Shown one piece after another: positions 23,412 to 56,393 of a DNA stretch of 64,000 nt. The notes beneath the pieces are model-generated. The model had not been told where the DNA came from. It searched no databases and worked only from the letters and a program-made list of their open reading frames with translations. Positions within the stretch are counted from its first letter, which is position 1, and every line of letters begins with the position of its first letter. Origin of the DNA: Candidatus Latescibacterota bacterium (lineage in GTDB: Bacteria; Latescibacterota; UBA2968; UBA8231); contig JAYZFI010000031.1 in the NCBI GenBank assembly GCA_036336855.1, positions 8,240 through 72,239 of the forward strand. The letters run 5' to 3'. Both the position numbers and the translations under genes were made by a program.

Positions 23412-23414
23412 AGC

Positions 23415-25091: not shown

Positions 25092-25184
25092 TTTCATCAG
25101 CGACCTGAAAGTGCCCTCCGGATGAGTCACGCTTAATAGGCATGACACCTTGTCCGATGAAGGACACTGCTGTCGAGTCCACCC

Positions 25185-26549
25185 TTGGCCGCCCTGTCTA
25201 ATACCGACACGATCGTCGCCGTTGCCAGCCCCCGAGGGGAGGGCGGGATCGGGGTGATCCGCCTCAGCGGCCCCGCCGCCGCCGCGACTGCCGCCCAGCT
25301 CTTCCACAGTGCCAAGACAATCGGTCACCGGCCCCACCGGGTAGAATACGGCAAGGTCCGCGACGCTCAGGGACGCGAAATCGACACCGCTTTGGCCTGG
25401 TTCCTGCCCGGTCCTAAGAGCTACACCGGTGAGGACACCGTTGAGATCTCTACTCACGGCAGCGAAGCCGTTCTCCAGGCCGTGCTAGAGACCGCGGTCG
25501 AGTCAGGCGCTCGGATGGCCGAGGCAGGAGAGTTTACGCGCCGAGCTTTCATCAATGGCAAGCTCGACCTCCCGCAAGCAGAAGCCGTCGTCGATCTGAT
25601 CCGCGCGGGGTCACGGTCGGGTCTGATGACCGCCTACGGAGCGGCAAGCGGAGGCCTGTCCAAGGTCGTGGCGGAGGTGAAAGCAGAAATCGTGGCCGCC
25701 CTTGCCCTCCTGGAAGTAGGGCTCGACTTTGTGGACGAGGATGTCGACACCCCATCCATGGCTCAGGTCGACGCCCACGTCCTTGCAGTGGAGCGGCGGG
25801 CCCGGGAACTCGTGGAGAGCTTCGCCGGAGCGCGGCGACGTCTACAGGGCTGGCAAGTAGCCATCGTCGGCCGGCCCAATGTCGGCAAGTCCACGCTGCT
25901 GAATGCCCTATTGAGCGAAGAACGGGCCATTGTCAGCGAGACCCCCGGGACCACCCGAGATGTGGTAGAAGGACGGGTGATCTGGGCGGGCGAGAGTTTG
26001 AGGCTGGTCGATACAGCAGGCCAGCGTCGGAATCCCGGACCGGTAGAGGCGGAGGGCATTCGACGGGCCCGACAGCGCGCCGAGGAAGCGGATCTCGTCC
26101 TCGTGGTTTTAGATCGGTCCCGGGAGTGGAGCTCTGAGGACGAGTGGGTGATTGGCGCGGCGGGTAACTCACCGCGGCTCTTAGTGCTCAACAAGGCCGA
26201 TCTCTCGCCGCGGTTGCAGCTACCCGCCTCACTGGAGGAACCGGAATTCGTCGCGGTATCCGCCACCACAGGGTCTGGTCTCGAGGGCTTGCGCTCGCGA
26301 ATCTTGCGCCACACGCGGTCCATGAAACCGGAGGCGGCGGTCAGTTTGCTTCGCGATCGGCATCGGGAGCGGATGTCGAGTGTCGCCGATCGGGCCTCTC
26401 GGGCTCGCGAACAGCTCTCAGCGCTGACACCGGAGATCGCGGCCGCCGAGCTTCGGAACGCGTTGGAGGATGTGGGAGAGCTGTTGGGAGAAGAGGTGGA
26501 GGAGGCCGTCCTCGACCGGATCTTCGCCGAGTTCTGCATCGGCAAGTGA
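25185..26549 (+). CDS. mnmE: tRNA modification GTPase MnmE
   Basis: 454 aa, TTG start. N-terminus DTIVAVASPRGEGGIGVIRLSG, G-domain GRPNVGKSTLLN / DTAG / NKAD, and the C-terminal FCIGK motif. Confidence 0.93.
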   Translation: MAALSNTDTIVAVASPRGEGGIGVIRLSGPAAAATAAQLFHSAKTIGHRPHRVEYGKVRDAQGREIDTALAWFLPGPKSYTGEDTVEISTHGSEAVLQAVLETAVESGARMAEAGEFTRRAFINGKLDLPQAEAVVDLIRAGSRSGLMTAYGAASGGLSKVVAEVKAEIVAALALLEVGLDFVDEDVDTPSMAQVDAHVLAVERRARELVESFAGARRRLQGWQVAIVGRPNVGKSTLLNALLSEERAIVSETPGTTRDVVEGRVIWAGESLRLVDTAGQRRNPGPVEAEGIRRARQRAEEADLVLVVLDRSREWSSEDEWVIGAAGNSPRLLVLNKADLSPRLQLPASLEEPEFVAVSATTGSGLEGLRSRILRHTRSMKPEAAVSLLRDRHRERMSSVADRASRAREQLSALTPEIAAAELRNALEDVGELLGEEVEEAVLDRIFAEFCIGK

Positions 26550-27235
26550 GGGCAGTGTTCCACGTGGAACAGCCCGATCCCGATGCGAGCCGCCTTCCCG
26601 GAATGTTTCACGTGAAACAATCGGGCCCCGCGGAGGACATTCGGCAGATCCTGGAGCAGTTCTGTCCGGATTGTGCCGATCGGCACCGCGCGTGGCAGCA
26701 TAGTCTGGAGCGCTACTGCCGCCTGCTTCATCAGTGGACGAAGCGCGTGAACCTCATCTCCCCCCGAGATCGGCCCTGCATTGTCTCCCACCACATTGCG
26801 CCCGCTCTCGCCTTCCGAACCTTGGCCCGTGCTGTGGATCACGAGCGCATCGTCGATGTCGGATCCGGCGCCGGACTGCCAGGGATCCCCCTCTCTATAA
26901 CCCTTCCCCAATCTCACGTCGTGCTCGTCGAGAGCCGCCGCCGCCGGGCCCATTTTCTGCGCCGTGTTGTCGCCGAACTCGAACTGAGTGCGGAGGTCGT
27001 CCATGGACGCGTAGAAAAGTGGATCCCTCTGTGTCCCGCGAACCTTGTCGTAGCCCGGGCGGTGGCCGCGCCTGATGAGCTCCGCGAGCTCACCCGCACC
27101 TGCCGGCACCCGGCGGGGCACATCCTGACCACCCTTCCTCCGGGTGTCGCCAGACGGGGTCCCTCTGCGTCGATCGCGCTGTGTGAGCAGCGATGGCGGG
27201 GTGGTCAGGGTCGTTGCGCCTTGTTTCGTGGATGA
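26546..27235 (+). CDS. rsmG: 16S rRNA (guanine527-N7)-methyltransferase RsmG
   Basis: 229 aa from a GTG overlapping the mnmE stop (GTGA). An alternative ATG at 26603 gives the common MFHVKQ start. SAM-binding DVGSGAGLPGIPL. Follows mnmE directly, with no mnmG between. Confidence 0.85.
   Translation: MRAVFHVEQPDPDASRLPGMFHVKQSGPAEDIRQILEQFCPDCADRHRAWQHSLERYCRLLHQWTKRVNLISPRDRPCIVSHHIAPALAFRTLARAVDHERIVDVGSGAGLPGIPLSITLPQSHVVLVESRRRRAHFLRRVVAELELSAEVVHGRVEKWIPLCPANLVVARAVAAPDELRELTRTCRHPAGHILTTLPPGVARRGPSASIALCEQRWRGGQGRCALFRG
26556..26571. promoter_or_regulatory. parS-like centromere site 1
   Basis: TGTTCCACGTGGAACA is a perfect 16-bp palindrome. It has one mismatch (position 11, G for A) to the widespread parS consensus TGTTNCACGTGAAACA. 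Confidence 0.7.
26604..26619. promoter_or_regulatory. parS centromere site 2
   Basis: TGTTTCACGTGAAACA is an exact match to the parS consensus TGTTNCACGTGAAACA and a perfect palindrome. Confidence 0.85.
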
Positions 27236-27239
27236 GTTG

Positions 27240-27442
27240 TGTGGATAGCGACGGACATCCGGTCACTTTCCCATAAGATATCCACAGGCATCCACTGGAT
27301 CATTGTGGATATGACGTACAGGTCAAAATCCGCTCCTGCAACTCTTTAAGGCACTCTGCAATAGCCAAAGAGGTCCTTGTCCACAGATTGATTTGGCCCT
27401 GGTGAATAACTTCATCCACAACGGGGGATAAGGTGTGGATAT
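27240..27442. promoter_or_regulatory. Second DnaA-box cluster (six boxes within 1 mismatch in 203 bp)
   Basis: TGTGGATAG 27240-27248; ATATCCACA 27278-27286; TGTGGATAT 27304-27312; TTGTCCACA 27377-27385; TCATCCACA 27412-27420; TGTGGATAT 27434-27442. Lies in the 313-bp spacer after rsmG. Confidence 0.8.
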
Positions 27443-33827: not shown

Positions 33828-35549
33828 ATGATGAATATCCCTACACACGACGTTCTCATCGTCGGCGGCGGCGGCGCCGGGTTGCGCGCTGCCGTTGCCG
33901 CCGTCGAATCTGATCCTAGCCTCGATGTTGGTCTGATCTCCAAGGTCTATCCCATGCGCAGCCACACTGTTTCCGCCGAGGGGGGAGCGGCAGCGGTGAT
34001 GCGCGACGACGACAGCCTCGATTCCCACGCCTTCGACACCATCAAGGGCAGCGACTTCCTTGCCGATCAGGATGTGGTGGAAGCCTTCGTCGAAGAGGCA
34101 CCCCGCGAATTGATCCAGCTTGAGCACTGGGGTTGCCCTTGGAGCCGCGAGCCCGACGGCCGCATCAGCGTGCGCGCTTTTGGCGGCATGAGCACCAAGC
34201 GTACTTGTTACGCTGCTGACAAAACCGGCTTCCACATGCTGCACGCGCTGTTCCAGAATTCCTTGCGCTACGATCGCATCCATCGCTATGACGAGTGGTT
34301 CGTCACCTCTCTATTGCAGGACGAAGGACGGGTCGCCGGCGTCGCCGCCCTGAACCTGCTCGAGGGCGGCATTCACGCCATTCCCGCCAAGGCAGTGATC
34401 CTGTGTACGGGCGGAGGAGGCCGCGTCTTCCCCTTCACTACCAACGCGGCCATCAAGACCGGCGACGGCATGTCCATGGCCTACCGCGCCGGTTGCCCCC
34501 TGAAGGACATGGAGTTCGTCCAGTACCATCCGACCGGTTTGCCAGGTACCGGGATTCTGATGACGGAGGCCTCTCGAGGTGAGGGCGGCCACATGATCAA
34601 CAGCAAGGGAGAGCGTTACTTGTCGGAATACGTGCCCGGGAAGATGGAGCTGGGCCCCCGCGACATCCTCTCCCGTGCTTTCATCCACGAGCGTAGCGCC
34701 GGCCGCGTCTTTCAAGACGAGGACGGTGAATTCGTCCACCTCGATCTGCGGCATCTTGGCGAGAAGACGATCGACGAGAAATTGCCTTTCGTGCGCGAGC
34801 TCACCCGCAACTACGTAGGCATCGATCCCGTGTACGAGCCGATTCCGGTACGTCCAGTCGTGCACTATATGATGGGTGGGGTGCACACTAACATCAACGG
34901 GGCAACGCCGATACCCGGGCTGTTCGCTGCCGGCGAGACAGCGTGTATAAGCCTCAACGGCGCTAACCGTTTGGGCTCGAACTCGCTAACCGAATGTCTC
35001 GTTTTTGGTGCTCGCGCCGGCCTAGCAGCGGTGGCCCACGCATCCAAGCAAAAGAAACCCCTGGTCCGCGCTTTGGAGGCCTTGGCCCGAGACGAAGAGG
35101 AGCACATCGAATCGACGCTGTTGTCCACCGATGCCAACCGCACCGAGCGGGTCTCTGATATTCGCACCGAGCTGCAGAAGACAATGGAGGACGGGGCCGG
35201 CATCTACCGCACCTCTGAAGAGCTGACCAAAGCCTGCGAGCGTATCACCAAACTACGCGAGCGCTATCAGCGAGTCCGCATCGACGACCACTCATCGGTC
35301 TTCAATACCCAGTTAACCGCTGCACTTGAACTCGGGTGCATGCTTGACGTGGCCGAATCGTTAGCGCATTCGGCGCGGCTACGCGAGGAGTCGCGAGGTT
35401 CACACGCGCGCTCCGATTTCGAAGCGCGCGATGACGAGCACTTCCTACAGCATTCCCTCGCCTATCACGTCGGCGAAGGTGCTGATCCTCGCATCGAGTA
35501 CCTCCCCGCCACCATCACTCGTTGGCAACCGGAGGAGCGCACATACTGA
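33828..35549 (+). CDS. frdA: Fumarate reductase flavoprotein subunit (E. coli FrdA type)
   Basis: 573 aa. [32 protein letters not shown] (covalent-FAD His region nearly identical to E. coli Frd[18 protein letters not shown]), [24 protein letters not shown]. Confidence 0.9.
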
Positions 35550-35554
35550 CGACG

Positions 35555-36301
35555 ATGACAGACAACACGATCACTTTGTCGGTGGCTCGCTACCGACCAG
35601 AACAGGACAGCGAGCCCCATTTTCAGGACTACGAGATTCCCTACCGGGAAGACTGGGTCGTACTCGACGCCCTCAACTACATCAAGGACTACGTCGACGA
35701 CTCCGTCACCTACCGCTGGTCCTGCCGGATGGGGGTGTGCGGAAGCTGCGGCACCATGGTCAACGGCGAACCCAAACTCACGTGCGCCACGTTCCTACGC
35801 GAATATTATCCGAACCCTGTTCGTGTCGAGCCCCTCAACAACTTCGGCGTGGTTCGTGATCTGGTCGTCGATCTCGACGACTTCATGGCCAAGCTTACGG
35901 CAGTGAAGCCCTACATTGTGCGCGACGACGAGAAGCCGGTGGAAGAGGGAGAGTACCGCCAAACTCCCGAGGAGCTGGCCGAGTACAAGCAGTTCAGTCT
36001 CTGCATTAACTGCATGCTGTGCTATTCTGCCTGCCCGGTGTACGGTCTTGAAGGCGGTTTCATCGGACCAGCGGCCCTGGCCTTGGCCCATCGTTACAAT
36101 CTTGACAGCCGCGACAAGGGCAACGACGAGCGAGCCCACGTCATTGCCTCTAGCGAAGGAATCTGGGAGTGCACTTTCGTCGGCGAGTGTTCGGTGGTCT
36201 GTCCCAAGAACGTGGACCCGGCGGCGGCAATTCAGCGCACCAAGGTGGCCACCACCCAGAGCTGGTTCAAATCCATCCTCATGCCGTGGGCGGGGCGTTG
36301 A
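35555..36301 (+). CDS. frdB: Fumarate reductase iron-sulfur subunit
   Basis: Trimmed to the ATG at 35555 ([18 protein letters not shown]...). The 2Fe-2S cluster motif is [10 protein letters not shown]...C. The 4Fe-4S/3Fe-4S motifs are [12 protein letters not shown] and [12 protein letters not shown]. Confidence 0.9.
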
Positions 36302-36303
36302 CC

Positions 36304-36714
36304 ATGGAACGGCACGACCAGAGCCAGGGCCCGAAAATCCATCGCCCGGAGATGTCGCCCACTTGGTGGCTGAAGAAGCGCAGTTATTTCCTGTTCATGA
36401 TGCGCGAGCTGTCGAGCGTGTTTGTTGCCGCCTTCGCCCTGTTACTGCTATACGAACTCTTTCTGCTGTCCAAGGGTCCGGAAGTCTACGGGCTGTTTCA
36501 GGAGTCGCTGAGACGCCCCGGATTTATACTGTTCTACGTCGTGGCCTTCGTGTTCTCCGTGTACCACACCGTGACCTGGTTTCAGGCAGCGGCCAAGATT
36601 CAGGTGGTCAAGCTGGGATCGTGGACCATGCCTGGGTGGATGATGACCGCCGGGGCCTTGGTGGCCTGGGCGATTCTCTCCGGTGCCATTGCTGGCTACT
36701 TCCTCGCCGCTTGA
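36304..36714 (+). CDS. frdC: Fumarate reductase membrane anchor subunit C
   Basis: Trimmed to the ATG at 36304 (MERHDQSQ...). MSPTWWLKKRSYFLFMMRELSSVF parallels E. coli FrdC [23 protein letters not shown]. About 136 aa with 3 TM. Confidence 0.8.
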   Translation: MERHDQSQGPKIHRPEMSPTWWLKKRSYFLFMMRELSSVFVAAFALLLLYELFLLSKGPEVYGLFQESLRRPGFILFYVVAFVFSVYHTVTWFQAAAKIQVVKLGSWTMPGWMMTAGALVAWAILSGAIAGYFLAA

Positions 36715-36727
36715 AGGGAGGACGAAG

Positions 36728-37090
36728 ATGAACTACAAGAAGGACACTACAGAGCCCTTCTGGTGGGGCATGTTCTCGGCGGGGGGTGTGGTTGCGGCCC
36801 TGTTTATCCCCATTCACATTTTCATCGACGGCCTCGCTGTACCGCTTGGGCTCATGGACGGCAGACAGGTGGGCTTCGAGCGTATGCATGCCCTCGTTGC
36901 CCACCCGGCGCTGAAGGTCTATCTCTTCGTCCTCATCGTTATGCCCCTCTACCACGCAGCGCACCGGATCCGGTTTTCGCTGTACGAGCTGGGCATGCGC
37001 GAGTTCCGCATTTCCATGGGCGTACTTTGCTACGGGGGAGCCCTGGCGGCGACCGCGGGTGCCACCTATGTACTGATGAAAGTCCTGTGA
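36728..37090 (+). CDS. frdD: Fumarate reductase membrane anchor subunit D
   Basis: Trimmed to the ATG at 36728 (MNYKKDTTEPFWWGMFSAGGVVAA...), which parallels E. coli FrdD SDEPVFWGLFGAGGMWSA. About 120 aa with 3 TM. Confidence 0.8.
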   Translation: MNYKKDTTEPFWWGMFSAGGVVAALFIPIHIFIDGLAVPLGLMDGRQVGFERMHALVAHPALKVYLFVLIVMPLYHAAHRIRFSLYELGMREFRISMGVLCYGGALAATAGATYVLMKVL

Positions 37091-47873: not shown

Positions 47874-48335
47874 TCAACGAACGCTGGTCGGCAGGCGGAA
47901 ATCGCCACGTTGAATGGCGATCTCTAGCTCTCTGTGGAAGACGGAGTCCAGATGGCTGGTCATTTTCCAGCCTTCGGGATCGCGGAGAAAATAGATGAAG
48001 GGGCTTTCTTTGTCCGAGGACAAAGTGTTGATGTCGAACAACAGATAGCCCAGGCTGGAACTGAGCTCCTTTTCCTCCACGATCTGACGGCGATTGGCAT
48101 CATCGAGCCGGTGCTGCCTCGACTTCGACCACTCTGCTTCCCAGGTGGCGAAGTCGCCCCCGTACTCCTGGTCGCGGTAGCTGGCGCTGAAGCACTCCCA
48201 AGTCGTAAGGGCGTCGTCGGCATGCAGAGCCCGCTGGTAGTGCTGATAGGTGTTGGCGGGGGACAGATAGGAAGTCCGGGTTTCGTTGCTGCAAGCTCCC
48301 AGCAACAGAGCCGCGATGAGGAACGTACGAATCAC
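47874..48335 (-). CDS. Hypothetical lipoprotein
   Basis: 153 aa. MIRTFLIAALLLGACS has a lipobox (LLGAC). The GTG start overlaps the stop of the upstream BFN gene (GTGA). No family recognised. Confidence 0.65.
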   Translation of the reverse strand: MIRTFLIAALLLGACSNETRTSYLSPANTYQHYQRALHADDALTTWECFSASYRDQEYGGDFATWEAEWSKSRQHRLDDANRRQIVEEKELSSSLGYLLFDINTLSSDKESPFIYFLRDPEGWKMTSHLDSVFHRELEIAIQRGDFRLPTSVR

Positions 48336-49024
48336 GAGCCGGTGCTCTTCACTCGCTCGATCTTGTCTCGTAGCAAGGCCGCCTCTTCGTACTCTTCGCA
48401 GATCACGGCCTGGTGGAGGAGGTGCTCTAGTTGCGTCAGGATGTCGTCTTCGGCGGAAGGCGCCTCGGGTTCGGATACCTCGTCTTCTACAACTGTCGAG
48501 CTGCTTTCGAGAATCTGTGGCTCGAGGTCGTAGAACCGGGAGATGGTGCGCTCCACCTTGGCTTCGTCCGGTGCCGAAGAGACGCTAGCGCAATCGAGGA
48601 TCTCGTTGGTGACAAAGATCGGCGCCTGAGTGCGGAGAGCTAGCGCGATGCCGTCGCTGGGACGGCAGTCGACGTCGCACAGGCGGGACTCGTGCTCGAC
48701 AACGATGACGGCCTCGAAGATCTGGCCCGCCACCGAGTGGACGACGACGCGGCGCACAGGGATGGACAGCTCGTCGAGGAGCGCCGTGAACAGATCGTAG
48801 GAGATGGGACGCAGGGGCTGCTCGCCGGCCAGGTTCATCTGCACCGCCGCCGCCTCGAACTCGCCGACGGCGATGGGTAGGAGCCGGGGCATATCGCCCT
48901 CTTTTTCACACAGCCAGATCAGGGGTTTCTCGGCACGGAGGAAGGGGCTCACCTTGACCACCGACATCTCTACCAGTGCTCTGCGCTTTCGGGAAGTCTT
49001 GTTCCCTGCCATGGGCTCGATCAC
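48332..49024 (-). CDS. Bifunctional nuclease (BFN/DUF151) domain protein with C-terminal UVR motif, copy 1
   Basis: 230 aa. BFN-like core LLPIAVGEFEAAAVQMNLAGEQPLRPISYDLFTALLDE...DCRPSDGIALALRTQAPIFV. The C-terminal LHQAVICEEYEEAALLRDKIERV is a UvrB/C-type UVR motif. Confidence 0.75.
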   Translation of the reverse strand: MIEPMAGNKTSRKRRALVEMSVVKVSPFLRAEKPLIWLCEKEGDMPRLLPIAVGEFEAAAVQMNLAGEQPLRPISYDLFTALLDELSIPVRRVVVHSVAGQIFEAVIVVEHESRLCDVDCRPSDGIALALRTQAPIFVTNEILDCASVSSAPDEAKVERTISRFYDLEPQILESSSTVVEDEVSEPEAPSAEDDILTQLEHLLHQAVICEEYEEAALLRDKIERVKSTGS

Positions 49025-49084: not shown

Positions 49085-49717
49085 TTACTCTGCGTCCAGA
49101 CGAGACAGGCGGTCGCGCAGACGTGCCGCCTCCTCATAAGCCTCTTCGGCTATCGCTTGGCGCAGGCGATTCTCCAGCTGTTGCCGCTCGGTAAGCGGCT
49201 GATCGGAGGCAGCGAAGATCTCTTCCAAGGTCACGCCGCCGGAGGGGAGGCTGAGCCCCGACGAATTCTCTTCGACGATGACCTCTGGACCGTCCTCTTC
49301 CTCCTCCCAATTTGGTCCTTCCTCGTCGTCGAGAACAGATTCGGCCGCGAAAATAGGTGCCCCCGAACGCAGCGCTAAAGCTATGGCATCGCTGGGACGG
49401 GAGTCGACGACACGGACCTCTCCGTTATCGGTGATTACCTGGACCTCGGCGTAATAGATGCCATCCTCCAAGGCGATAATGCTCACCTTGCCCACCCGCA
49501 CGCCGGCCTCGGCCAACAGCGAGCACGCCATGTCGTAGCTGAGCGGCCGCGCCGGCTCTTGACCGCGATGGGCTATGGCGATGGCGCGGGCCTCGGAGGG
49601 ACCAATGACGATATGGAGATTGGCGTCTCCGTCGCGCGCGCGGAGAACGACACGATGGTACGCTCGCGAGGAAATCTGGACGCGCTGGACCTGCATTTCA
49701 ACCATGTCGACATCCAT
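49085..49717 (-). CDS. Bifunctional nuclease (BFN/DUF151) domain protein with C-terminal UVR motif, copy 2
   Basis: Start uncertain: ATG at 49717 chosen, and the track ORF begins at 49792. Core IVIGPSEARAIAIAHRGQEPARPLSYDMACSLLAE...DSRPSDAIALALRSGAPIFA. C-terminal LRQAIAEEAYEEAARLRDRLSRL is a UVR motif. Confidence 0.7.
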   Translation of the reverse strand: MDVDMVEMQVQRVQISSRAYHRVVLRARDGDANLHIVIGPSEARAIAIAHRGQEPARPLSYDMACSLLAEAGVRVGKVSIIALEDGIYYAEVQVITDNGEVRVVDSRPSDAIALALRSGAPIFAAESVLDDEEGPNWEEEEDGPEVIVEENSSGLSLPSGGVTLEEIFAASDQPLTERQQLENRLRQAIAEEAYEEAARLRDRLSRLDAE

Positions 49718-49843
49718 CCGGGAGGATGTCGACGCAGCGGTTGAGGGCTGCAGCGGCGACATATAACACGGCTGAAAAAAGATCCTCAACAAACACGTAG
49801 GTATCCGAAATCATTGCAGACACGCATGAAATTCAAGGACGAT

Positions 49844-50017
49844 TCACGGCTTCGATTCCGAGCCCGATGCTGTTCCGGCGGCGCTCTGCTCGAGCTCGGA
49901 AAGGGAGCGTGCAAGATCACTGTGCCGTTGCTGAATGCGCCCCACGTAGGCGGCGATGAGGAGGAAGAATAGGCAGTAGGCGGTGGCCAAATAGGCAAAT
50001 CCGTGATCTTCACTCAT
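49844..50017 (-). CDS. ccmD: Heme exporter protein CcmD
   Basis: 57-aa product from the internal ATG at 50017 of track ORF 49844..50479: MSEDHGFAYLATAYCLFFLLIAAYVGRIQQRH... Single TM. Positioned after ccmC. Confidence 0.65.
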   Translation of the reverse strand: MSEDHGFAYLATAYCLFFLLIAAYVGRIQQRHSDLARSLSELEQSAAGTASGSESKP

Positions 50018-50094
50018 GGCCGGAACAATTTCCTTTGCAACCGGGTGGTGGCGAAAGTTGGTACCCTCGGAAAAGAAACATCTTACAAATTGGC

Positions 50095-50805
50095 TCAAGC
50101 CTGTTCGGCGAGGCGCAGCCGCAGTCGGTCGATGCGTGCCGCGAGTCGCTCCTGACGCAGCCGCAGGCGCATGAAATAGACGAACAGAAGCGCGAAGGCA
50201 GCATGGCAGAGGTACTTGGTTTGAGCCATCCCCGGTGCAAGATCGATCTTGGGAGGATGCAGCTGTTGATCGGCGGCCCACAGGTGAACGGCGTAGTGTA
50301 CGAGGGGCACGTTGACGAAGGCGATAACGCCGACCACAGCGGCGAAGCGCTGCGTGCGCTCGCCGGGTTCCCCGTAGGCGCGCACCATTGCGTAAGCGAC
50401 GTAGGTCGTAAAGGTGATGAGCATGGTGGTGAGTCGGGGCTCCCAGCGCCAATATACTCCCCAGATTGGCTTCGCCCACAGGGGTCCGGAGATGAGGACG
50501 AAGAGAGAGAACAGAATTCCCAATTCGGCGGCGATGCCGGCGAAGCGATCCCAGCGATCGTGGCGGTGCACCAGATAGCCAATGCTGCCGACGAAGACGA
50601 AGAAGTAGGCCGTCCCGGCGGTCAGTGCGGAAGAGACGTGGAAGTAGAAAATGCGCTGTACTGCACCCATCTGTCGCTCCGTCGGTGCGTAGAGGAAGAC
50701 GGCGAGCAAGGCGGCGACCATGGAGACGGCGACGGCGACGGAGAGACCGGTGTGGCGGACGGTTGTCGTCGAATTGGTGGTGGCGGGCGCAGCGGAGGCA
50801 GTCAT
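50095..50805 (-). CDS. ccmC: Heme exporter protein CcmC
   Basis: Trimmed to the ATG at 50805 (ATGA overlap with the ccmB stop). Trp-rich WWD-type loop WAKPIWGVYWRWEPRLT, and FYFHV with a conserved His. Confidence 0.88.
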   Translation of the reverse strand: MTASAAPATTNSTTTVRHTGLSVAVAVSMVAALLAVFLYAPTERQMGAVQRIFYFHVSSALTAGTAYFFVFVGSIGYLVHRHDRWDRFAGIAAELGILFSLFVLISGPLWAKPIWGVYWRWEPRLTTMLITFTTYVAYAMVRAYGEPGERTQRFAAVVGVIAFVNVPLVHYAVHLWAADQQLHPPKIDLAPGMAQTKYLCHAAFALLFVYFMRLRLRQERLAARIDRLRLRLAEQA

Positions 50806-51500
50806 TCTTCCATCACGAAGTCGAAGAGCAGGAGGGCGAGAAAGAAACATATCACGCCGGAGGCGGCGAGCATGGCCAAGTGGGTGCCGAGCCCGTCGGG
50901 CCAGAGTGTCGTATGTCCTGGTACTCCCGCCGCCAGAATCAGCGAGGTCGCCTCCACACACGAAATCAAAGCGGGAATGAGAATTGGCAACGACAGAAGG
51001 GGGAGAAAGAATTCCCGAAGTCGGGAGTGCCCGGCCATGGCGGCGAATAACGTGCCCACCGAAGCAATGCAGGTCGAGCCCAGGGCGAAAACGATGAGCA
51101 ACGGAGCCAAGTAGGCGCCGACGGTCAGGTTAAAGAAAAGTCCGAACAGTGGCAAGGTGATGAGCTCGACGGCGAGGAGAAAGAGAAAGTTCCCCGCCAT
51201 TTTGGCCACGTAGAGACTCGAGCGAGACACCGGTGAGGCCAAGATGCCATCGAGACAGTCGTCGGCGTCTTCGGCGGTGAAAGTGCGCTGTAGACCGATA
51301 AGACTGGCGAAGAGAACGGCCGACCAGAGCACGCCTGGCCCGATCTCCCCCAGTGCCGCACCACCGAGCTCGAAGCCAAAGTTGAAGACGAGCAGCACAA
51401 GCAACACGAAAAACACCATGGGGGAGAGGCGCTCTTTGCTACGCCACTCCAGGCGCAGGTCTTTGCGCAACAGCGTCGCAATGTGTTGCCACCAGATCAC
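50802..51500 (-). CDS. ccmB: Heme exporter protein CcmB
   Basis: Trimmed to the GTG at 51500, which overlaps the ccmA stop (GTGA). A 232-aa polytopic membrane protein with typical CcmB hydrophobic pattern. Confidence 0.8.
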   Translation of the reverse strand: MIWWQHIATLLRKDLRLEWRSKERLSPMVFFVLLVLLVFNFGFELGGAALGEIGPGVLWSAVLFASLIGLQRTFTAEDADDCLDGILASPVSRSSLYVAKMAGNFLFLLAVELITLPLFGLFFNLTVGAYLAPLLIVFALGSTCIASVGTLFAAMAGHSRLREFFLPLLSLPILIPALISCVEATSLILAAGVPGHTTLWPDGLGTHLAMLAASGVICFFLALLLFDFVMEE

Positions 51501-52231
51501 GACGCCGCTTCCGCGCCCAGCCGTTGACAGAGCTGCATCAGAGGTCCTTCCACCGCCGACGGGGTCCACTCGTGCTCGCCGGCGACGCGGCCACGGCGCA
51601 ACACCGCGACGCGATTGACGAGACGCGCCGCCTCGCTCCCGCGGTGGGTGACTAGCACCGAGCTCGCGTCCTCTTCGGCGAGGCGTTCGACGAGCTGATC
51701 GGTTAGGGACTGGGACGACTCCCGATCGAGGCCGGTGAAGGGCTCGTCGAGCAGGAGCAACTTGGGTCGGTGCAGAGTTGCCCGGGCCAGAGCTAGACGC
51801 TGCTTCATTCCTTGCGAGAATCCGTGCACAGGGCGATCAGCGTGACGCCCGAGTCGTGCTCGTTGCAACGCGGCTTCGACAGCGCCGACGGGCAGGTCGT
51901 AGAGGTGGGCGAAGAATTGAAGGTTTTCGCGCGCCGTGAGCTCGCGATAGAGTAGTGGCTGGTGTGAGAGTAGGCCGATGTGGCGGCGCACGTTGTGATG
52001 CTTCCGGGGATCGACGCCGTCGACGGAGATAGTGCCCCGTGATGGCGAGGCGAGGCCAGCGATCAGGCGCAAGAGGGTGGTCTTGCCGGCGCCGTTGGCA
52101 CCGGCCAGCAGCAAGTGGATGCCCGCTTGCAGGTGCAGATGCAGGCCGTCGAGGGCGACGACCAGGCCGAAGCGTTTCTCCACTCCTTGGACGACGACGT
52201 CCACGCCAGTGGCTCCGTCAGGCTTCGCCAT
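51497..52231 (-). CDS. ccmA: Heme exporter ATP-binding protein CcmA
   Basis: 244 aa. Walker A GANGAGKTTLL, ABC signature FSQGMKQRLALA, Walker B LLLLDEP. Confidence 0.88.
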   Translation of the reverse strand: MAKPDGATGVDVVVQGVEKRFGLVVALDGLHLHLQAGIHLLLAGANGAGKTTLLRLIAGLASPSRGTISVDGVDPRKHHNVRRHIGLLSHQPLLYRELTARENLQFFAHLYDLPVGAVEAALQRARLGRHADRPVHGFSQGMKQRLALARATLHRPKLLLLDEPFTGLDRESSQSLTDQLVERLAEEDASSVLVTHRGSEAARLVNRVAVLRRGRVAGEHEWTPSAVEGPLMQLCQRLGAEAAS

Positions 52232-53363
52232 GGGCGTGAAGGGCGACGGCGATGGCTCGCTGCATCAGCTCCCTGCGTCGCTGGATTAGCTCCTGCCGCT
52301 GCTCGTCCGCAGCACCGGCTAGCGCGTCATCGATGGCGGAAAGCTCGGCGAACAGCTGCTCGCGCTCCTCCTTGCCCTCTACCTCATCCGTCGCTGCCTG
52401 GAAGGACGGATCCGGGGAGCGTGACAAGCTCAGTGCTGCCACCAGCGCTGCCGGTACAAGGGCGAGCAAGGTCCACTTCAAAGCCCAGCGCAGAGGCCGG
52501 GAGAACGGCAGCGAGATGGTGAGCTGGCGGCCCGGCTTTAGGTTTTCGACTCGGTAGTGGCGGTACCGCTGCTCATGAAAAGAGACGGCGCCGAGGTCAA
52601 CGAAGGGGTTACCCCTGAGCTCGACCTCGGCGGGCAACAGGAAGATTTCGAGGCTTGTCGTGGGATAGAGTACGTGGTGTACGTAATCCCCGTCGAAACG
52701 CTCGCCGTCGACGCGGTGGGTGAAGGAAATCTGTGAATGCCCCGGCGGCAGCGGTTGGGTGTCGAAGATCGACTGGCCGTGACCCTGCACGAACTCTGCG
52801 GTATGCGCCTGCACGCCGACACTGGCATCTGTTAGTCGGAACTCCACCCCATGACGGCGATCCCCGTCGCTGGTGCCCACGAAGGTGCGCTCCCCGGAAT
52901 TCTCCACGTGCACGAGGTGGGCCACGTCGAGGCCGGAGGGGGTGATGCCGAGAAAGAGATTGTAGTCGGTGATTATGAGATCGTCGGCATCTTCGCTGGG
53001 CTCGTAAACCTCGACAATGATCTGATCTTGTTCGCCTACCCGCAGGGTGGAGGTGGGATAGGGCACGCCGTCGCGGTGTGCGACTAAGAAGAACTCTGTC
53101 TCCGCTGTCAGGAAGGAGCCGGCAAACTGGAAACTCCCCTCGGCGTCGGTGGTCTTGCGTAACAGTTCGGAGATCTGGCCGGCCTCACGGATGAACAAGG
53201 CGACTTCGACGCCGGGGACACGTTGTTCGTTCAGTGGGTCGAGGACGTAGCCAGCGACAACGGCGCCGGCGGGGGCGGCGAGGCCCGAGAGGAGGATAAG
53301 GGAAGGAACGAAACGCCGTAGCCTCCGTCGACGAGCGCGGAGACCGCCATCGCGGTTGATCAT
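52218..53363 (-). CDS. Hypothetical bitopic membrane protein inside the ccm operon (periplasmic beta-sandwich region, C-terminal TM and charged helix)
   Basis: Trimmed to the ATG at 53363 (ATGA overlap with the upstream stop). RR-containing signal RRRRLRRFVPSLILLSGLAAPAGA. CarboxypepD_reg-like start GYVLDPLNEQRVPGVEVALF...TTDAEGSFQFAG. Late TM LKWTLLALVPAALVAALSL, then an acidic/basic helix. The 3' end overlaps the ccmA start by 14 nt. Confidence 0.6.
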   Translation of the reverse strand: MINRDGGLRARRRRLRRFVPSLILLSGLAAPAGAVVAGYVLDPLNEQRVPGVEVALFIREAGQISELLRKTTDAEGSFQFAGSFLTAETEFFLVAHRDGVPYPTSTLRVGEQDQIIVEVYEPSEDADDLIITDYNLFLGITPSGLDVAHLVHVENSGERTFVGTSDGDRRHGVEFRLTDASVGVQAHTAEFVQGHGQSIFDTQPLPPGHSQISFTHRVDGERFDGDYVHHVLYPTTSLEIFLLPAEVELRGNPFVDLGAVSFHEQRYRHYRVENLKPGRQLTISLPFSRPLRWALKWTLLALVPAALVAALSLSRSPDPSFQAATDEVEGKEEREQLFAELSAIDDALAGAADEQRQELIQRRRELMQRAIAVALHAHGEA

Positions 53364-53842
53364 GACTCGGCGTCGAGCCGGATGCCGCAGTGCGGGCAGA
53401 AACGGCCCCCTTCGTTGCGAAGCTTGGCACCGCAGGATGGGCAGAGCGCAAAGGCACCAGGTAAGGAAGGGCTTGCATGGGCACTGCTCGCTTCTCGCTT
53501 CCACTGAGCCAGGTCGGCTTCGACACGAGCTTCCCAGTCGATGGTGCCTCCGTCGCTGGGCTCTATGGCGTCGAGCTGCCGCAGCACCTCCACCGCGTTG
53601 GCTTCGAGATCGGGGCGCACGCTCCGCAAATCCTCGCTCGATATCTTGCCCACGGAGTGGTCGAACTCAAGTTCGCGCAACGATGCGTAGAGTTGCTCCT
53701 TGCGCTCGGTAAGTTCGAGGCGTTGCCGCGCCTGACCAGCCGGCCGCGCCCAGGCGTAGCGGGTGGCGAAGATCGGGTGCAGGACGGCGTAGAAAAACCC
53801 GGCCAGCAGCAGCATGCAGGCGGCAGGGATGAACAGGTTCAC
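53360..53842 (-). CDS. Hypothetical membrane-anchored protein with CcmI-N-terminal-like helix and C-terminal zinc ribbon
   Basis: 160 aa. N-terminal TM MNLFIPAACMLLLAGFFYAVL. The helix QLYASLRELEFDHSVGKISSEDLRSVRPDLEANAVEVL resembles, by eye, the cytoplasmic segment after TM1 of CcmI. C-terminal CPSCGAKLRNEGGRFCPHCG has two CxxC pairs. Starts 15 nt after ccmF. Confidence 0.6.
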   Translation of the reverse strand: MNLFIPAACMLLLAGFFYAVLHPIFATRYAWARPAGQARQRLELTERKEQLYASLRELEFDHSVGKISSEDLRSVRPDLEANAVEVLRQLDAIEPSDGGTIDWEARVEADLAQWKREASSAHASPSLPGAFALCPSCGAKLRNEGGRFCPHCGIRLDAES

Positions 53843-53857
53843 GGCGGCTCGATTCGA

Positions 53858-55855
53858 CTACGCCGATGCCGGACCGGCAGTAGCTCGTGCCGCCTCGCGG
53901 TCGAGACGAGCGAGCCGGCGGTCGCGCGAGGTCGGCCACATGGCCCACAATGAGCTCAAGACGAGCAGGGCCGAACCCCACCACACGCAGGCGACTAGAG
54001 GGTTCACGTAAATTTGGAACTTCGTGGAACCATCCTGGGAATTACTGCCGATGATGATGAGATAGAAGTCCTCTAACCAGCGCGTGTATATGGAAACTTC
54101 GGTAGTGTTTTGCTCCGCTGTCTTGTAGAAATGCCGCTCGGGCAGCAAGGTGGCGAGAAACTGCCCATCGTACTCCAGGGAGACGGCGGCGGCGGAAACC
54201 GATTTGTTGGCGTCGTCGCCGAAGGCCAGGGTCTCGAAAGTGACGGCATAGCGGCCTACGTCTTCGCGTTGCCCGGGATACAAGACGATCTCGCGGTCGA
54301 TGGAGAGCGCCTGCCCGGTGAAACCGACGAACAGCAGAATGACCGATAGGTGGACGAGGTAACCGCCGTAGCGGCGGCGGTTTTTGGATAGTAGCATGTA
54401 GAACGCGGCGAGGGTGCTCTCCCCGGTGGAGCGCCGCCGGGCGCTGATGCCGCGCGAGAATTCCAACCCGACGGAACCCACGACGAAACCGCACAGACTC
54501 AGCGACATCAACGCGTATAGGTTACGCATACCAACGGCGAAGAGAACGGTGGCGACCAAGACGGCGGAGATTGCGGGAATGGTGAAGTTGCGGCGCAGAC
54601 TCTCTCCCGAGGTGCGGCGCCACGCGAACAGCGGGCCGGCACCGGTGAGGAAGAGCAAGACCAGACCCATGGGAACGGAGACCCGATTGAAGAAGGGCGC
54701 ACCTACGGTGATCTTGTCACCCGTGACGACTTCGGAGATCACCGGAAACAGGGTGCCCCAGAGTACGGCGAACAGTAGCGTCAGTAAAATCCAGTTGTTG
54801 AGTAGAAACGCGCTCTCACGTGAGGCGAAGGATTCCAAGTGGCTCTCCGGCTTCAGGTCGGGCAGGCGCCACAGCAGCAGTACAACGGAGCCGACGACGA
54901 TGATGACTAGGTATGTGACGAAGAACGGACCCACATTCGACTGGGCAAAGGCGTGCACCGAGGACACCACCCCTGAACGGGTGAGGAAGGTACCGAAAAT
55001 GGTCATCCCGAAGGTGAAGATAAGGAGCACCATGTTCCACACCTTGAGCATGCCCTTACGCTCCTGAATCATCACCGAGTGCAACAGCGCCGTTCCTGCC
55101 AGAAAGGGCATGAGGGATGCGTTCTCCACCGGATCCCAACCCCAATAACCGCCCCAACCAAGCTCCACGTAGGCCCATTTACCACCCAGCAGAAGACCGC
55201 CCCCAAGAAAGGTCCAGGGGATCAGCAGCCAGCGACGCATGGCGCGCAGCCAGGTGTTGTTAAGCTCGCGCGCCGCCAGCGCGGAGATGCCGAATGCGAA
55301 GGGTACCGTCATGCCTACCATGCCGGCGTAGAGCAACGGCGGGTGAATGGCCATGTAGGGGTGTTGCAGGATCGGATTCAGGCCCTGCCCCTCGGTAGGC
55401 GTGAAGGGCAAGCGCTGAAAGGGATCGGCGGCGAAGATGTTGAGCAGAGCGAAGAAGCAGCAGGACGCCGCCATCACGGCCGTCGCGTAAGGCATGAGGC
55501 CGCGATATCGATGGCGGTTGAGCAGAATGGCAGCGCTGGTGTAGGCGGAGAGCATCCAACCCCAGAACAGGATCGATCCGTTCTGTCCGCCCCAGAGCGA
55601 GGCGAGCATGTACTGGGCGGGCATATGGGCATTCGTGTTCTCCGCTACGTACTGGATCTGGAAGTCTCTCGAAAAAATGGCATACCAAAGGCCCATGACG
55701 GCGACGGTGTAAAGGGCGCAGACGCTGAGCGCCGCGTTCTCGCCGGAGCGGATCAGACCTTCGTGGCGTCGGTGGATTCCGAATAAGGATGTCGCCGTGG
55801 CGTAGGCCGCCGCCGCCAACGCTAGACAGAGCGCGAAGTAGCCGACGTCAACCAC
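53858..55855 (-). CDS. ccmF: Cytochrome c-type biogenesis protein CcmF (heme lyase component)
   Basis: 665 aa, GTG start. WWD motif WGGYWGWDPVENASLMPF. Polytopic with conserved His residues. Confidence 0.92.
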   Translation of the reverse strand: MVDVGYFALCLALAAAAYATATSLFGIHRRHEGLIRSGENAALSVCALYTVAVMGLWYAIFSRDFQIQYVAENTNAHMPAQYMLASLWGGQNGSILFWGWMLSAYTSAAILLNRHRYRGLMPYATAVMAASCCFFALLNIFAADPFQRLPFTPTEGQGLNPILQHPYMAIHPPLLYAGMVGMTVPFAFGISALAARELNNTWLRAMRRWLLIPWTFLGGGLLLGGKWAYVELGWGGYWGWDPVENASLMPFLAGTALLHSVMIQERKGMLKVWNMVLLIFTFGMTIFGTFLTRSGVVSSVHAFAQSNVGPFFVTYLVIIVVGSVVLLLWRLPDLKPESHLESFASRESAFLLNNWILLTLLFAVLWGTLFPVISEVVTGDKITVGAPFFNRVSVPMGLVLLFLTGAGPLFAWRRTSGESLRRNFTIPAISAVLVATVLFAVGMRNLYALMSLSLCGFVVGSVGLEFSRGISARRRSTGESTLAAFYMLLSKNRRRYGGYLVHLSVILLFVGFTGQALSIDREIVLYPGQREDVGRYAVTFETLAFGDDANKSVSAAAVSLEYDGQFLATLLPERHFYKTAEQNTTEVSIYTRWLEDFYLIIIGSNSQDGSTKFQIYVNPLVACVWWGSALLVLSSLWAMWPTSRDRRLARLDREAARATAGPASA

Positions 55856-55897
55856 AGCAGCAGGCCAGGGCGGAAGGAAGAGGGGGAGCCGAGGGCG

Positions 55898-56344
55898 TCA
55901 GGACGAGTTTTCCACGTCCAGAGCCCCGACGTGATCGTCGTAGCTCTGGCCCTCATACTTGGACGGGCACTTGGCGAAGACGATCTCGGCTTCGAACTGG
56001 GGTTCGCCGCCGCCGGCGACGTAGAGTCCCTCGACGACGACTTGGGCGCGGTCCTGGAAGGTATCGGGAAGGACGGCATTGCCGGTGTAGCGCACTTGCA
56101 GGTTGCGCTCCCCGTCGGTGACAAGAAACTCGGGCCGATGACGGTAGGCGTCCCATTCGATGGAGCCCACGACCACCGTGCACCCCCCAAGCTGAATACG
56201 ACGTCCGTCGAGCTCTGTCACCGATTGCTCAAGCAACATGTCCAAGGTCATGTGACGCGCTGCCGACTGCTGCACGCCAGTGAAGATGAGGAAGATGACC
56301 CCGAGGCCGATAATGACCGAACCGATTGCGAATTTTCCTCTCAT
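55898..56344 (-). CDS. ccmE: Heme chaperone CcmE, cysteine variant (CxxxY)
   Basis: Trimmed to the ATG at 56344 (MRGKFAIGSVIIGLGVIFLIF...). OB-fold body LQVRYTGNAVLPDTFQDRAQVVVEG. The heme-attachment site reads FAKCPSKYEG where canonical CcmE has LAKHDENY. Confidence 0.85.
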   Translation of the reverse strand: MRGKFAIGSVIIGLGVIFLIFTGVQQSAARHMTLDMLLEQSVTELDGRRIQLGGCTVVVGSIEWDAYRHRPEFLVTDGERNLQVRYTGNAVLPDTFQDRAQVVVEGLYVAGGGEPQFEAEIVFAKCPSKYEGQSYDDHVGALDVENSS

Positions 56345-56393
56345 AGAAACCCCGAGATACAGGTGGTTTTCTGACGCCAAGTTTAGAACGTGC

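Follow-up and report, generated by a model that had tools for sequence, protein, structure and literature searches.

Variant cytochrome c maturation (Ccm) systems with a Cys-type CcmE were reportedly described by Allen et al. in 2006 and by Goddard et al. in 2010. CcmE of the E. coli type carries the motif VLAKHDE with H130, and the CcmFHI complex includes CcmI, which chaperones apocytochrome through a TPR domain in the periplasm (PMC3884852). The variant is known as System I* (reviewed by Stevens et al. 2011, PMC3601427) and has an archaeal version (PMC9084895). In System I*, CcmH is optional, being present in only about one-third of the bacteria with Cys-type CcmE, and CcmI, which is included in the Desulfovibrio system, raises cytochrome production yet is non-essential (PMC3601427). 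The first-pass annotation of the DNA studied here had described this variant as lacking CcmH; such a variant of System I does exist, but that description missed the Desulfovibrio CcmI and the third of the bacteria that have CcmH.

The ccm operon and its CcmE

The window (the whole stretch of DNA analysed, 64 kb) contains an operon of a marine Latescibacterota at positions 49844-56344, with the gene order ccmE-ccmF-orf160-orf381-ccmA-ccmB-ccmC-ccmD on the minus strand. The ccm genes were identified with Pfam and NCBIfam models:

55898..56344, minus strand: ccmE, Cys-type heme chaperone, 148 aa from ATG (PF03100 2.8e-18)
53858..55855, minus strand: ccmF, heme lyase subunit, 665 aa (PF16327 8.5e-60, PF01578 6.8e-36, TIGR00353 7.9e-132)
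53843..53857, minus strand: ccmF-orf160 spacer, 15 nt, a site occupied by a ccmH of ~155 aa in all related Latescibacterota-type loci
51497..52231, minus strand: ccmA, ABC ATPase (TIGR01189 2.6e-41, 141.5 bits, above the 131.6 cut-off)
50802..51500, minus strand: ccmB, 232 aa from a GTG overlapping the ccmA stop (PF03379 1.6e-33)
50095..50805, minus strand: ccmC, 236 aa from an ATG overlapping the ccmB stop (TIGR01191 2.9e-36, PF01578)
49844..50017, minus strand: ccmD-like small membrane protein, 57 aa (TIGR04391 CcmD_alt_fam 5e-4, PF04995 0.06)

Gene order, strand and junctions are all as first annotated, the junctions being a 15-nt gap (ccmF/orf160), ATGA overlaps (orf160/orf381 and ccmB/ccmC), a 14-nt overlap (orf381/ccmA) and a GTGA overlap (ccmA/ccmB). 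Both scores of the ccmD-like protein are under cut-off, making this a weak identification; the position of its gene is kept in all related operons.

CcmE consists of an N-terminal transmembrane (TM) segment (residues 1-29), an OB fold and a CPSKY motif; a TTG at 56380 is a possible alternative upstream start. The sequence AKCPSKY aligns column for column with AKHDENY of E. coli, which puts Cys in place of His130, bearing out the earlier assignment of Cys rather than His to the heme-binding position. The same type of CcmE accompanies the orf160 family elsewhere: at every locus of the family with a readable CcmE (34/34), it is of the Cys type.

CPSKY is the majority motif of System I*, and the window operon also resembles System I* in placing ccmE-ccmF ahead of ccmABCD and in having neither ccmH nor ccmG. 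Accessible descriptions of System I*, a set that includes neither Goddard et al. 2010 nor a comparison with the Desulfovibrio CcmI gene, contain no zinc-ribbon CcmI-N-like protein or beta-sandwich partner between ccmF/H and ccmA.

The orf160 and orf381 proteins

The two genes between ccmF and ccmA encode proteins with the following parts:

53360..53842, minus strand: orf160, CcmI-N-like zinc-ribbon protein, 160 aa (NCBI MEE2658564.1, "zinc ribbon domain-containing protein")
53747..53833, minus strand: orf160 TM helix, residues ~4-32 (Kyte-Doolittle segment 1-27; AF2 helix 4-32, pLDDT >90)
53564..53743, minus strand: orf160 CcmI-type helical hairpin, predicted to be cytoplasmic, residues 34-93 (hhalign to CcmI N-termini; AF2 helix 34-63, turn, helix 69-93)
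53375..53452, minus strand: orf160 C-terminal four-Cys zinc ribbon CPSC...CPHC, residues ~131-156 (PF13248 3.9e-5)
52218..53363, minus strand: orf381, beta-sandwich protein of the periplasm, anchored in the membrane and with a CcmI-type helix at its C-terminus (NCBI "hypothetical protein VX733_08670")
52512..53261, minus strand: orf381 periplasmic beta-sandwich regions, residues 35-118 and 129-284 (AF2 pLDDT mostly >85; Foldseek)
52422..52493, minus strand: orf381 C-terminal TM helix, residues 291-314 (Kyte-Doolittle segment 293-316; AF2 helix 291-314)
52230..52400, minus strand: orf381 cytoplasmic helices, second copy of the CcmI-type motif, residues 322-378 (hhalign)

The AF2 models of the pair have pLDDT values of 81.9 and 86.3. 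For orf160 the model and PF13248 agree with the layout first proposed, of one TM, helices and a zinc ribbon; the N-terminus would lie outside and the ribbon in the cytoplasm. Zinc-ribbon models match 100/100 family members, in which the four Cys are invariant. The hairpin carries the motif L-x-E-L-E-F-D-x-x-x-G-K-I-x-x-E-D, of which E57, E59, F60, D61, G65 and K66 are invariant among 10 close homologs, and L58, F60, D61, G65 and K66 are nearly invariant in a 100-member alignment.

A likeness between orf160 and the stretch that follows TM1 in CcmI had been noticed by eye, and profile comparisons strengthen it. TIGR03142 is matched by 52/100 family members (best E 3e-6), a plain CcmI_N HMM matches five orf160 homologs (2e-4 to 7e-4), and in hhalign the N-termini of six annotated proteobacterial CcmI proteins align with a probability of 96.5% (E 9e-10) across TM1 and the helix. 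The similarity is confined to ~76 residues, and the window protein itself scores 13 bits against TIGR03142, under the curated cut-off of 29.3. Judged from these profiles, orf160 is distantly homologous to the CcmI N-terminal module (TM1 plus cytoplasmic helix), followed by a zinc ribbon.

In orf381, a signal peptide precedes a periplasmic beta-sandwich part of ~250 residues, which leads into a TM helix and then a tail in the cytoplasm; the late TM and cytoplasmic helix described earlier reappear in the AF2 model (helix 291-314; helices 322-378). The orf160 family aligns with these cytoplasmic helices (hhalign probability 81.6%, E 1e-5) and more strongly with the corresponding part of the Chloroflexota partners (97.7%, E 2.5e-12), whose C-terminal region in turn aligns with CcmI (82.8%). 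The tail of orf381 thus repeats the CcmI-type helix motif of orf160. Two other early descriptions fared less well. The RR of the signal is not conserved among homologs, leaving an ordinary signal peptide or anchor with no demonstrated Tat signal, and of the supposed CarboxypepD_reg-like region of ~300 aa there remains a weak touch of PF13620 to the first ~50 residues of the beta region (residues 36-82; 19 bits versus a cut-off of 32). The partner family is conserved across phyla (hhalign probability 99.4%, E 5e-22, 337 columns). Its Chloroflexota members carry, at the N-terminus, one or two cytochrome c domains (CxxCH), which hint at a redox role that a chaperone model leaves unexplained.

In Foldseek the orf381 model matches ribophorin I/Ost1 best (1.8e-10 to 7e-6; PDB 8b6l_O, 6s7o_E, 6ezn_A), followed by N-domains of M1 aminopeptidases. 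Like orf381, Ost1 has extracytoplasmic beta-sandwiches and a single C-terminal TM, behind which lies a helical tail in the cytosol, and ribophorin I assists in offering unfolded polypeptide to a modifying enzyme embedded in the membrane. Identity is 7-12%, without sequence similarity, and Ost1 belongs to another pathway in another domain of life. With TM-scores of ~0.3, which are low, these matches may come simply from generic features, namely beta-sandwiches in tandem and a TM helix, and we treat the likeness as an analogy with no demonstrated relationship.

A probable CcmI-like accessory module

Comparison with CcmI/CycH brings out both kinship and difference. TM1 and the next cytoplasmic helix, with the motif L-x-E-L-x-x-D-x-x-x-G-x-I, are common to CcmI and orf160, the C-terminal helix of orf381 bears the same motif, and the position of orf160 by ccmF/ccmH matches that of ccmI in gammaproteobacterial and betaproteobacterial operons. 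However, CcmI has 360-430 aa, whereas orf160 has 160, with a zinc ribbon instead of a second TM or TPR, and the pair has its periplasmic domain on a separate protein, as a beta-sandwich and in the opposite order relative to the TM. A simple split of CcmI was considered and rejected: orf381 runs periplasmic domain-TM-cytoplasmic helix, as opposed to TM2-then-periplasmic domain, and no similarity between its periplasmic part and CcmI could be detected, in either the TPR or the C-terminal domain. Of the earlier proposal of a split, non-TPR replacement for CcmI/CcmH, the CcmI relation of orf160 and the non-TPR character stand, and the split and the CcmH replacement do not.

On balance, we think it probable that the locus is a System I* operon which, beyond ccmEF and ccmABCD, has two conserved accessory genes that form a CcmI-related module. 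Our verdict is that System I* has in the orf160/orf381 pair an accessory module that is new, CcmI-like and not TPR-based. The TM-plus-hairpin module would dock onto the CcmF (or CcmF-CcmH) heme-ligation complex, matching the part of CcmI that spans the membrane and belongs to CcmFHI, and two copies of it would let orf160 and orf381 enter that complex together. The beta-sandwich of orf381 would then stand in for the CcmI TPR domain, as a platform on which apocytochrome c is kept, still unfolded, close to the CcmF WWD site; given the lack of similarity to the CcmI TPR and C-terminal domains, this chaperone role is an analogy. The core would be a "CcmI-N" protein always after ccmF, with zinc ribbon and partner as optional additions. 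The core protein does stand without a partner in some operons, so the two types are not obligate partners, and the ribbon is dispensable in the Actinomycetota, L024 and Bacillaceae versions.

Alternatively, orf381 and its kin could be redox or heme handlers that relay electrons to CcmF/CcmE-heme or reduce the thiols of CcmE-Cys or apocytochrome, with orf160 as membrane adaptor. The cytochrome c domains of the Chloroflexota partner and the confinement of the module to Cys-type CcmE, with its unusual heme-thioether chemistry, would fit. We nevertheless consider this unlikely, as the periplasmic parts of the Latescibacterota, Bacillaceae and L024/L038 partners contain no cytochrome c domain, CxxC or cofactor motif, and no redox-protein fold is among the Foldseek matches of the orf381 model.

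Conservation of the module and loss of ccmH

The first-pass annotation had found no CcmH or CcmG in the window, and our searches agree: tblastn of the 64 kb with five queries gave nothing better than E=0.06, an HMM built from ~100 CcmH sequences had no match at E<=1e-3 in the six-frame translation, and ten further small ORFs of the window contain no thioredoxin/CcdA domain. This absence, the place of the pair where other operons have ccmH/ccmI, and the CcmI similarity of orf160 could mean that the pair evolved to replace a missing thiol-redox CcmH plus CcmI module in a Ccm type lacking CcmH. However, CcmH (PF03918) is intact and directly upstream of the pair in 18/18 related Latescibacterota-type loci examined and in every Chloroflexota and Bacillaceae locus holding the pair. 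Neither protein has a periplasmic CxxC, the Cys of orf160 forming a predicted cytoplasmic zinc ribbon. Co-occurrence thus largely refutes the CcmH part of this reading, and the pair is not the substitute for a lost CcmH that had been suggested; as a whole the reading is improbable.

Within the Latescibacterota-type clade examined, only the window lineage lacks ccmH at this locus. The ccmH-less junction recurs at 99.3% identity in an independent Tara contig (L049) and is also present in L048. The missing ccmH is a lineage-specific deletion on top of a pre-existing module: the gene was cleanly deleted in this one lineage, leaving a CcmH-less System I* at this locus with the CcmI-like module kept. 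Since relatives of the operon retain CcmH, the window represents a secondary loss and does not show the ancestral state of the clade.

The pair might instead be a regulator or quality-control device, orf381 sensing periplasmic heme or apocytochrome load and signalling through the orf160 zinc ribbon, for example in an anti-sigma-like manner. Anti-sigma factors, too, can combine a zinc ribbon in the cytoplasm with a single TM and a sensor-like beta domain in the periplasm. Against this, no sigma factor or regulator is conserved beside the module in the loci compared, the ribbon is the dispensable part and the CcmI-like hairpin the conserved one, and the genes are tightly coupled translationally inside a structural operon. 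We regard a regulatory role as very improbable.

At 50% identity, the orf160 family amounts to as many as 2,937 clusters (E<=1e-10); among its best 150 matches, 136 are full-length proteins of 119-240 aa. We found no literature on either gene, and databases give only generic names; both genes belong to a widespread CcmI relative that is apparently undescribed. With neither ORF functionally annotated, both could be passengers with no part in cytochrome c maturation, but this is already contradicted by synteny, as well as by the start/stop overlaps with neighbouring ccm genes and the CcmI homology, and is hardly credible. An orf160 homolog lies in a ccm gene cluster at 42/42 loci from at least four phyla, immediately after ccmF, ccmH or ccmG in all except one fragment. 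The earlier link of both ORFs to Ccm holds, and they are genuine and conserved. GTDB loci retrieved with the orf160 profile account for 35 of these (35/35 in a ccm cluster, 34 directly after ccmF, ccmH or ccmG), the exception being L026, a fragment with only ccmC visible, downstream. Further metagenome and NCBI contigs have the homolog in the same position (5/5). A plasmid of the cultured Metabacillus sp. B2-18 carries it in the same ccm setting, and a Cytobacillus firmus plasmid also has the partner (orf381-family) gene.

A System I* operon with two additional genes

Eight consecutive minus-strand ORFs (window positions 49844-56380) form the cytochrome c maturation (Ccm) operon, and two of them, orf160 and orf381, lie between ccmF and ccmA.

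Genes of the ccm operon in the window, in operon order
55898-56344, minus strand, ccmE (PF03100, 2.8e-18)
53858-55855, minus strand, ccmF (clear Pfam/NCBIfam match)
53360-53842, minus strand, orf160 (MEE2658564.1; NCBI name 'zinc ribbon domain-containing protein')
52218-53363, minus strand, orf381 (NCBI name 'hypothetical protein VX733_08670')
51497-52231, minus strand, ccmA (clear Pfam/NCBIfam match)
50802-51500, minus strand, ccmB (clear Pfam/NCBIfam match)
50095-50805, minus strand, ccmC (clear Pfam/NCBIfam match)
49844-50017, minus strand, ccmD-like gene of 57 aa (weak match to TIGR04391, 5e-4, below the cut-off; position conserved)

Gene order and junctions (in order, a 15-nt gap, ATGA, a 14-nt overlap, GTGA and ATGA) are exactly as described in the first-pass annotation of this DNA. 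The core of System I*, the Ccm variant with Cys-type CcmE, is present at the locus: CcmA, B, C, E and F are clear, and CcmD is weakly supported. As had also been proposed, AKCPSKY of the window CcmE aligns with AKHDENY of E. coli, in which H130 belongs to the confirmed heme-binding motif (PMC3884852), so His130 is replaced by Cys and no His occurs at this position. The window protein thereby carries the Cys by which Stevens et al. 2011 define System I*, and its CPSKY is the majority motif (PMC3601427). About one third of bacteria with Cys-type CcmE have CcmH, the absence of which is frequent and non-defining, and CcmI 'appears to enhance' cytochrome production in System I* and is not required (PMC3601427). 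The earlier description of the variant as a ccmEFABCD type lacking CcmH is thus incomplete. System I* raises the question of how a heme-ligation complex deals with its substrate when CcmH or a TPR-type CcmI is missing, and a study of Methanosarcina in eLife asked explicitly if these two are replaced by non-orthologous proteins, without deciding the matter (PMC9084895). Our literature search found no description of a zinc-ribbon CcmI-like protein or of the orf381-type partner encoded beside it.

The window derives from a marine 'Candidatus Latescibacterota' MAG. Directly downstream of ccmD lie two tandem minus-strand paralogs (48332-49024 and 49085-49792) with a bifunctional-nuclease domain (PF02577) and a UVR motif; two other loci (L001 and L039) have this pair after their ccm operons as well, indicating that the linkage is conserved within the clade. 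A succinate dehydrogenase/fumarate reductase cluster occupies 33828-37090 on the plus strand, with a subunit-D-type membrane anchor confirmed (PF02313, 2e-29). No gene for a c-type cytochrome (CxxCH) was found among the 28 larger window ORFs checked. By eye, the region at ~13300-27300 resembles a replication-origin neighbourhood: the minus strand has gyrA-, gyrB-, recF-, dnaN- and dnaA-like ORFs, and the plus strand then has yidC-, mnmE- and rsmG/gidB-like ones, of which Pfam confirms only GidB. G+C falls to 0.53 at 20-22 kb, and the skew (cumulative GC) climbs from ~20 kb on.

CcmI-type hairpins in both proteins of the pair

CcmI has two TM helices and a cytoplasmic loop, and within the CcmFHI complex its periplasmic TPR domain acts as the apocytochrome chaperone (PMC3884852). 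The orf160 protein has a single hydrophobic segment, and its AF2 model (pLDDT 86.3) likewise shows one TM-length N-terminal helix (residues 4-32), followed by a hairpin (34-63 and 69-93, with a GKIS turn), another helix and a zinc ribbon. The region after the TM helix had been likened by eye to the segment following TM1 of CcmI, and profile-profile alignment bears this out. When the orf160 family was compared by hhalign with six annotated ccmI genes (Psychrobacter, Pseudomonas (two types), Cupriavidus, Serratia and Pelagibacterium plasmids), the match had a probability of 96.5% and an E value of 9e-10 over 76 columns, corresponding to TM1 plus the cytoplasmic helix. Both groups share the motif L-x-E-L-x-x-D-x-x-x-G-x-I, which takes the nearly invariant form ELEFDHSLGKIxxEDY in the orf160 family. 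TIGR03142, the model of the CcmI N-terminal domain, is matched by 52 of 100 family members (best E 3e-6) and is their sole recurrent NCBIfam match outside the zinc ribbon; window orf160 itself scores 13 bits (E 0.096), below the curated cut-off of 29.3 bits. By strict membership orf160 fails as a CcmI in four ways, having no second TM helix, no TPR, a length of only 160 aa and a score under the curated cut-off, yet TM1 and the conserved cytoplasmic helix are present.

The C-terminal ribbon, CPSC...CPHC, consists of two CxxC knuckles ~10-15 residues apart. Its four Cys are invariant in 100 sequences, and all 100 relatives match PF13248/PF13240 (best 3.7e-13), which upholds the zinc-ribbon assignment for the family, although orf160 of the window, at 23.4 bits, stays under the cut-off of 27. 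Pfam reports nothing but zinc ribbons in the 100 family members. A PDB sequence search with the orf160 profile likewise returned zinc-ribbon matches only, and Foldseek found nothing below E=1 for the model, merely generic helical hairpins.

For orf381, the AF2 model (pLDDT 81.9) predicts a disordered signal region, beta-sandwich at 35-118 and 129-284, a TM helix at 291-314 and two cytoplasmic helices at 322-378; the periplasmic part is all-beta. The suggested CarboxypepD_reg likeness holds for the predicted fold, the model showing a beta-sandwich at the matching stretch, but not as a family assignment: PF13620 matches residues 36-82 only, at 19.2 bits (E 0.0016; gathering threshold 32.3 bits), and no other annotation was found in Pfam or NCBIfam. 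Pfam detected no TPR in either orf160 or orf381. An RR-type signal had also been read at the orf381 N terminus; homologs without the RR motif led us to reject a conserved Tat signal.

Foldseek ranks the oligosaccharyltransferase subunit ribophorin I/Ost1 highest for orf381 (E 1.8e-10 to 7e-6, TM ~0.3, 10% identity), followed by N-terminal beta domains of M1 aminopeptidases. Pfam gave no match to ribophorin I/Ost1, and a PDB sequence search with the orf381 profile found nothing. We take the modelled likeness as one of architecture only. Homology of the periplasmic part to the TPR/Ig domains of CcmI was considered and rejected, given an hhalign probability of 0.8% for the orf381 family against full-length CcmI; with the partners from Chloroflexota, only a short cytoplasmic helix matched CcmI.

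The C-terminal end of orf381 is a different matter. In the Chloroflexota partners, the C-terminal ~360 residues are homologous to the orf381 family (prob 99.4%, E 5e-22). The TM-plus-hairpin profile of the orf160 family in turn matches the C-terminal TM-plus-helix region of the partners (Chloroflexota, prob 97.7%, E 2.5e-12; Latescibacterota, prob 81.6%, E 1e-5), as does CcmI (prob 82.8%). These matches indicate that the module is duplicated in the partner, so that both proteins of the pair bear a CcmI-type membrane-plus-cytoplasmic module.

Distribution of the module

We scanned GTDB with the orf160 alignment and mapped the 35 resulting loci by tblastn and HMMs. In all loci examined the orf160 family lies in a ccm cluster, nearly always directly after ccmF, ccmH or ccmG. 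CcmE is of the Cys type in all 34 loci where it is readable, a co-occurrence that the first-pass annotation had called for checking, and the module is so far specific to Cys-CcmE systems. In one Latescibacterota locus (L015:10252-12618, complete chromosome OZ242214.1) ~2.3 kb separate ccmA and ccmB, which are adjacent in all other loci.

In Chloroflexota the order is ccmE(CPT[KR]Y)-F-H-G-orf170-partner-ABCD, and the partner, of 540-640 aa, has one or two cytochrome c domains (CxxCH) at its N terminus. The maturation operon would thus encode one of its own substrates, or a redox relay. A complete operon with the module is also found on a plasmid of the cultured Metabacillus sp. B2-18, in the order ccmE(CPSKY)-F-H-hyp116-hyp310-ABCD-TlpA, and the partner gene recurs on a Cytobacillus firmus plasmid (NZ_CP107028.1, ~268.3-269.1 kb).

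Partner fusions and the plasmid-borne operon
L002:10510-12423, Chloroflexota, partner fused to c-type cytochrome domains (PF00034/PF13442)
L022:8588-10207, Chloroflexota, same fusion
L033:8158-9864, Chloroflexota, same fusion
L040:7539-9401, Chloroflexota, same fusion
L041, pB218, NZ_CP088246.1 182.8-189.8 kb, complete plasmid-borne System I* operon with the module (WP_098796865.1 and WP_098796863.1, both 'hypothetical protein'), then a TlpA-family reductase

A JGI contig of unknown phylum (L038) has the order E(CPSKF)-F-H-orf173-orf401-ABCD. Its CcmE (432-905) reads CPSKF, with Phe for the Tyr of CxxxY, a rare variant mentioned in PMC3601427; CcmH and the module are encoded in the same operon. 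At the Actinomycetota loci (L027-L037; Actinomycetota/Gaiellales MAGs), where CcmE reads TKCPSKY, a core protein of 116-139 aa stands alone directly after ccmF, overlapping the ccmF stop (~7850-8200 per locus). It consists of the TM helix and an ELEFDHRTG helix and has no zinc ribbon; neither a partner gene nor CcmH was found within 8 kb. Some Chloroflexota (L019-L021) and one further locus (L025) have the zinc-ribbon protein and no partner. Since zinc ribbon and partner are separable across phyla, the invariant element is the TM-plus-helix core beside ccmF.

Searched exhaustively with the orf160 profile, 1.84 billion representative proteins yielded 2,937 matches at E<=1e-10 (representatives; at 50% identity, up to ~2,900 clusters). 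Of the best 150 we counted 14 as noise, these being long multi-zinc-ribbon proteins; the remaining 136 are full length, at 119-240 aa. These data identify a large unannotated family in Latescibacterota, Chloroflexota, Actinomycetota and Bacillaceae. It keeps only the most enigmatic part of CcmI, TM1 and the cytoplasmic helix, often paired with a new periplasmic domain, and the hairpin therefore looks like the conserved core of CcmI function. The membrane part of CcmI (CcmI-1) is reportedly tied functionally to CcmF-CcmH, in work by Sanders et al. of 2005 and 2007.

Role of the pair and the missing ccmH

From these computational comparisons we infer that the pair is a variant of the CcmI accessory function that is new, non-TPR, widespread and unannotated. 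The hairpin module would dock orf160 and orf381 onto CcmF (or CcmF-CcmH), and the periplasmic beta-sandwich of orf381 may take the substrate-holding role of the CcmI TPR domain. Two families that databases call 'hypothetical' thereby acquire a testable role, for which the cultured Bacillaceae plasmids are a possible experimental system.

A redox or heme-handling role of the partner is the alternative we weigh most seriously; it is suggested by the cytochrome c fusions in Chloroflexota, but most versions of the partner lack a cofactor motif, and we regard it as unlikely. Somewhat less probable, and argued by analogy, is a tethering function. Ribophorin I couples oligosaccharyltransferase to the ribosome-Sec61 complex, and the pair would be its bacterial counterpart if the paired CcmI-type hairpins and the orf160 zinc ribbon formed a cytosolic platform that held the CcmF heme-ligation complex at the translating ribosome or at the Sec translocon. 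Apocytochrome would be caught, as it emerges, by the Ost1-like periplasmic domain of orf381 and would receive its heme co-translocationally. The cytoplasmic loop of classical CcmI, long unexplained, might in that case dock in the same way.

The first-pass annotation suggested that the pair may replace the CcmI/CcmH missing here. Its observation is confirmed: tblastn with five queries for CcmH/CcmG found nothing in the 64 kb better than E=0.06, an HMM built from ~100 CcmH sequences gave no match at E<=1e-3 in a six-frame translation of the window, leaving it with no ORF that matches CcmH (PF03918) and its CxxC motif, and none of ten other small window ORFs has a thioredoxin/CcdA domain. The interpretation is partly supported. 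The CcmI half agrees with the homology, but replacement of CcmH is contradicted by co-occurrence and is improbable, a shade more so than tethering: ccmH immediately precedes the pair in 18/18 Latescibacterota-type loci (L001, L003-L018 and L039, a set in which some MAGs are labelled Gemmatimonadaceae), and only the window lacks it. A regulatory role is less likely still, the zinc ribbon being dispensable and no conserved regulator lying nearby.

The closest syntenic relative, L001, shares the flanks of the window operon (M24 peptidase, THUMP-like methyltransferase, two BFN-domain genes) and reads ccmE(CPSKY)-ccmF-ccmH-orf164-orf378-ccmABCD. An independently assembled Tara Oceans contig (L049) is 99.3% identical to window 53881-53307, covering the ccmF stop codon, the spacer of 15 nt, orf160 in full and the first part of orf381. 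Because it reproduces the junction, the deletion of ccmH at this locus is real. The nearest NCBI Latescibacterota CcmH accessions lie >30,000 numbers from that of orf160 and hence, by this indirect comparison, belong to other MAGs of the same submission. Judged from the loci aligned, then, the missing ccmH is a local deletion and not why the two genes exist. As a variant of CcmI function, the module would be older than the loss of ccmH in this lineage and would not need CcmH, just as the version with a single gene apparently functions without CcmH in Actinomycetota. The window is thus a natural ccmH deletion retaining the module, useful for asking what CcmH is needed for.

A second contig (L048; ENA ERZ23498680 scaffold_415902, 859 bp) likewise covers the ccmF/orf160 junction. 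Just 175 bp of it (192-366) match window 53915-53741, at 99.4% identity, and both sides are unrelated to the window; a chimeric assembly may explain this, or a population variant rearranged at this junction.
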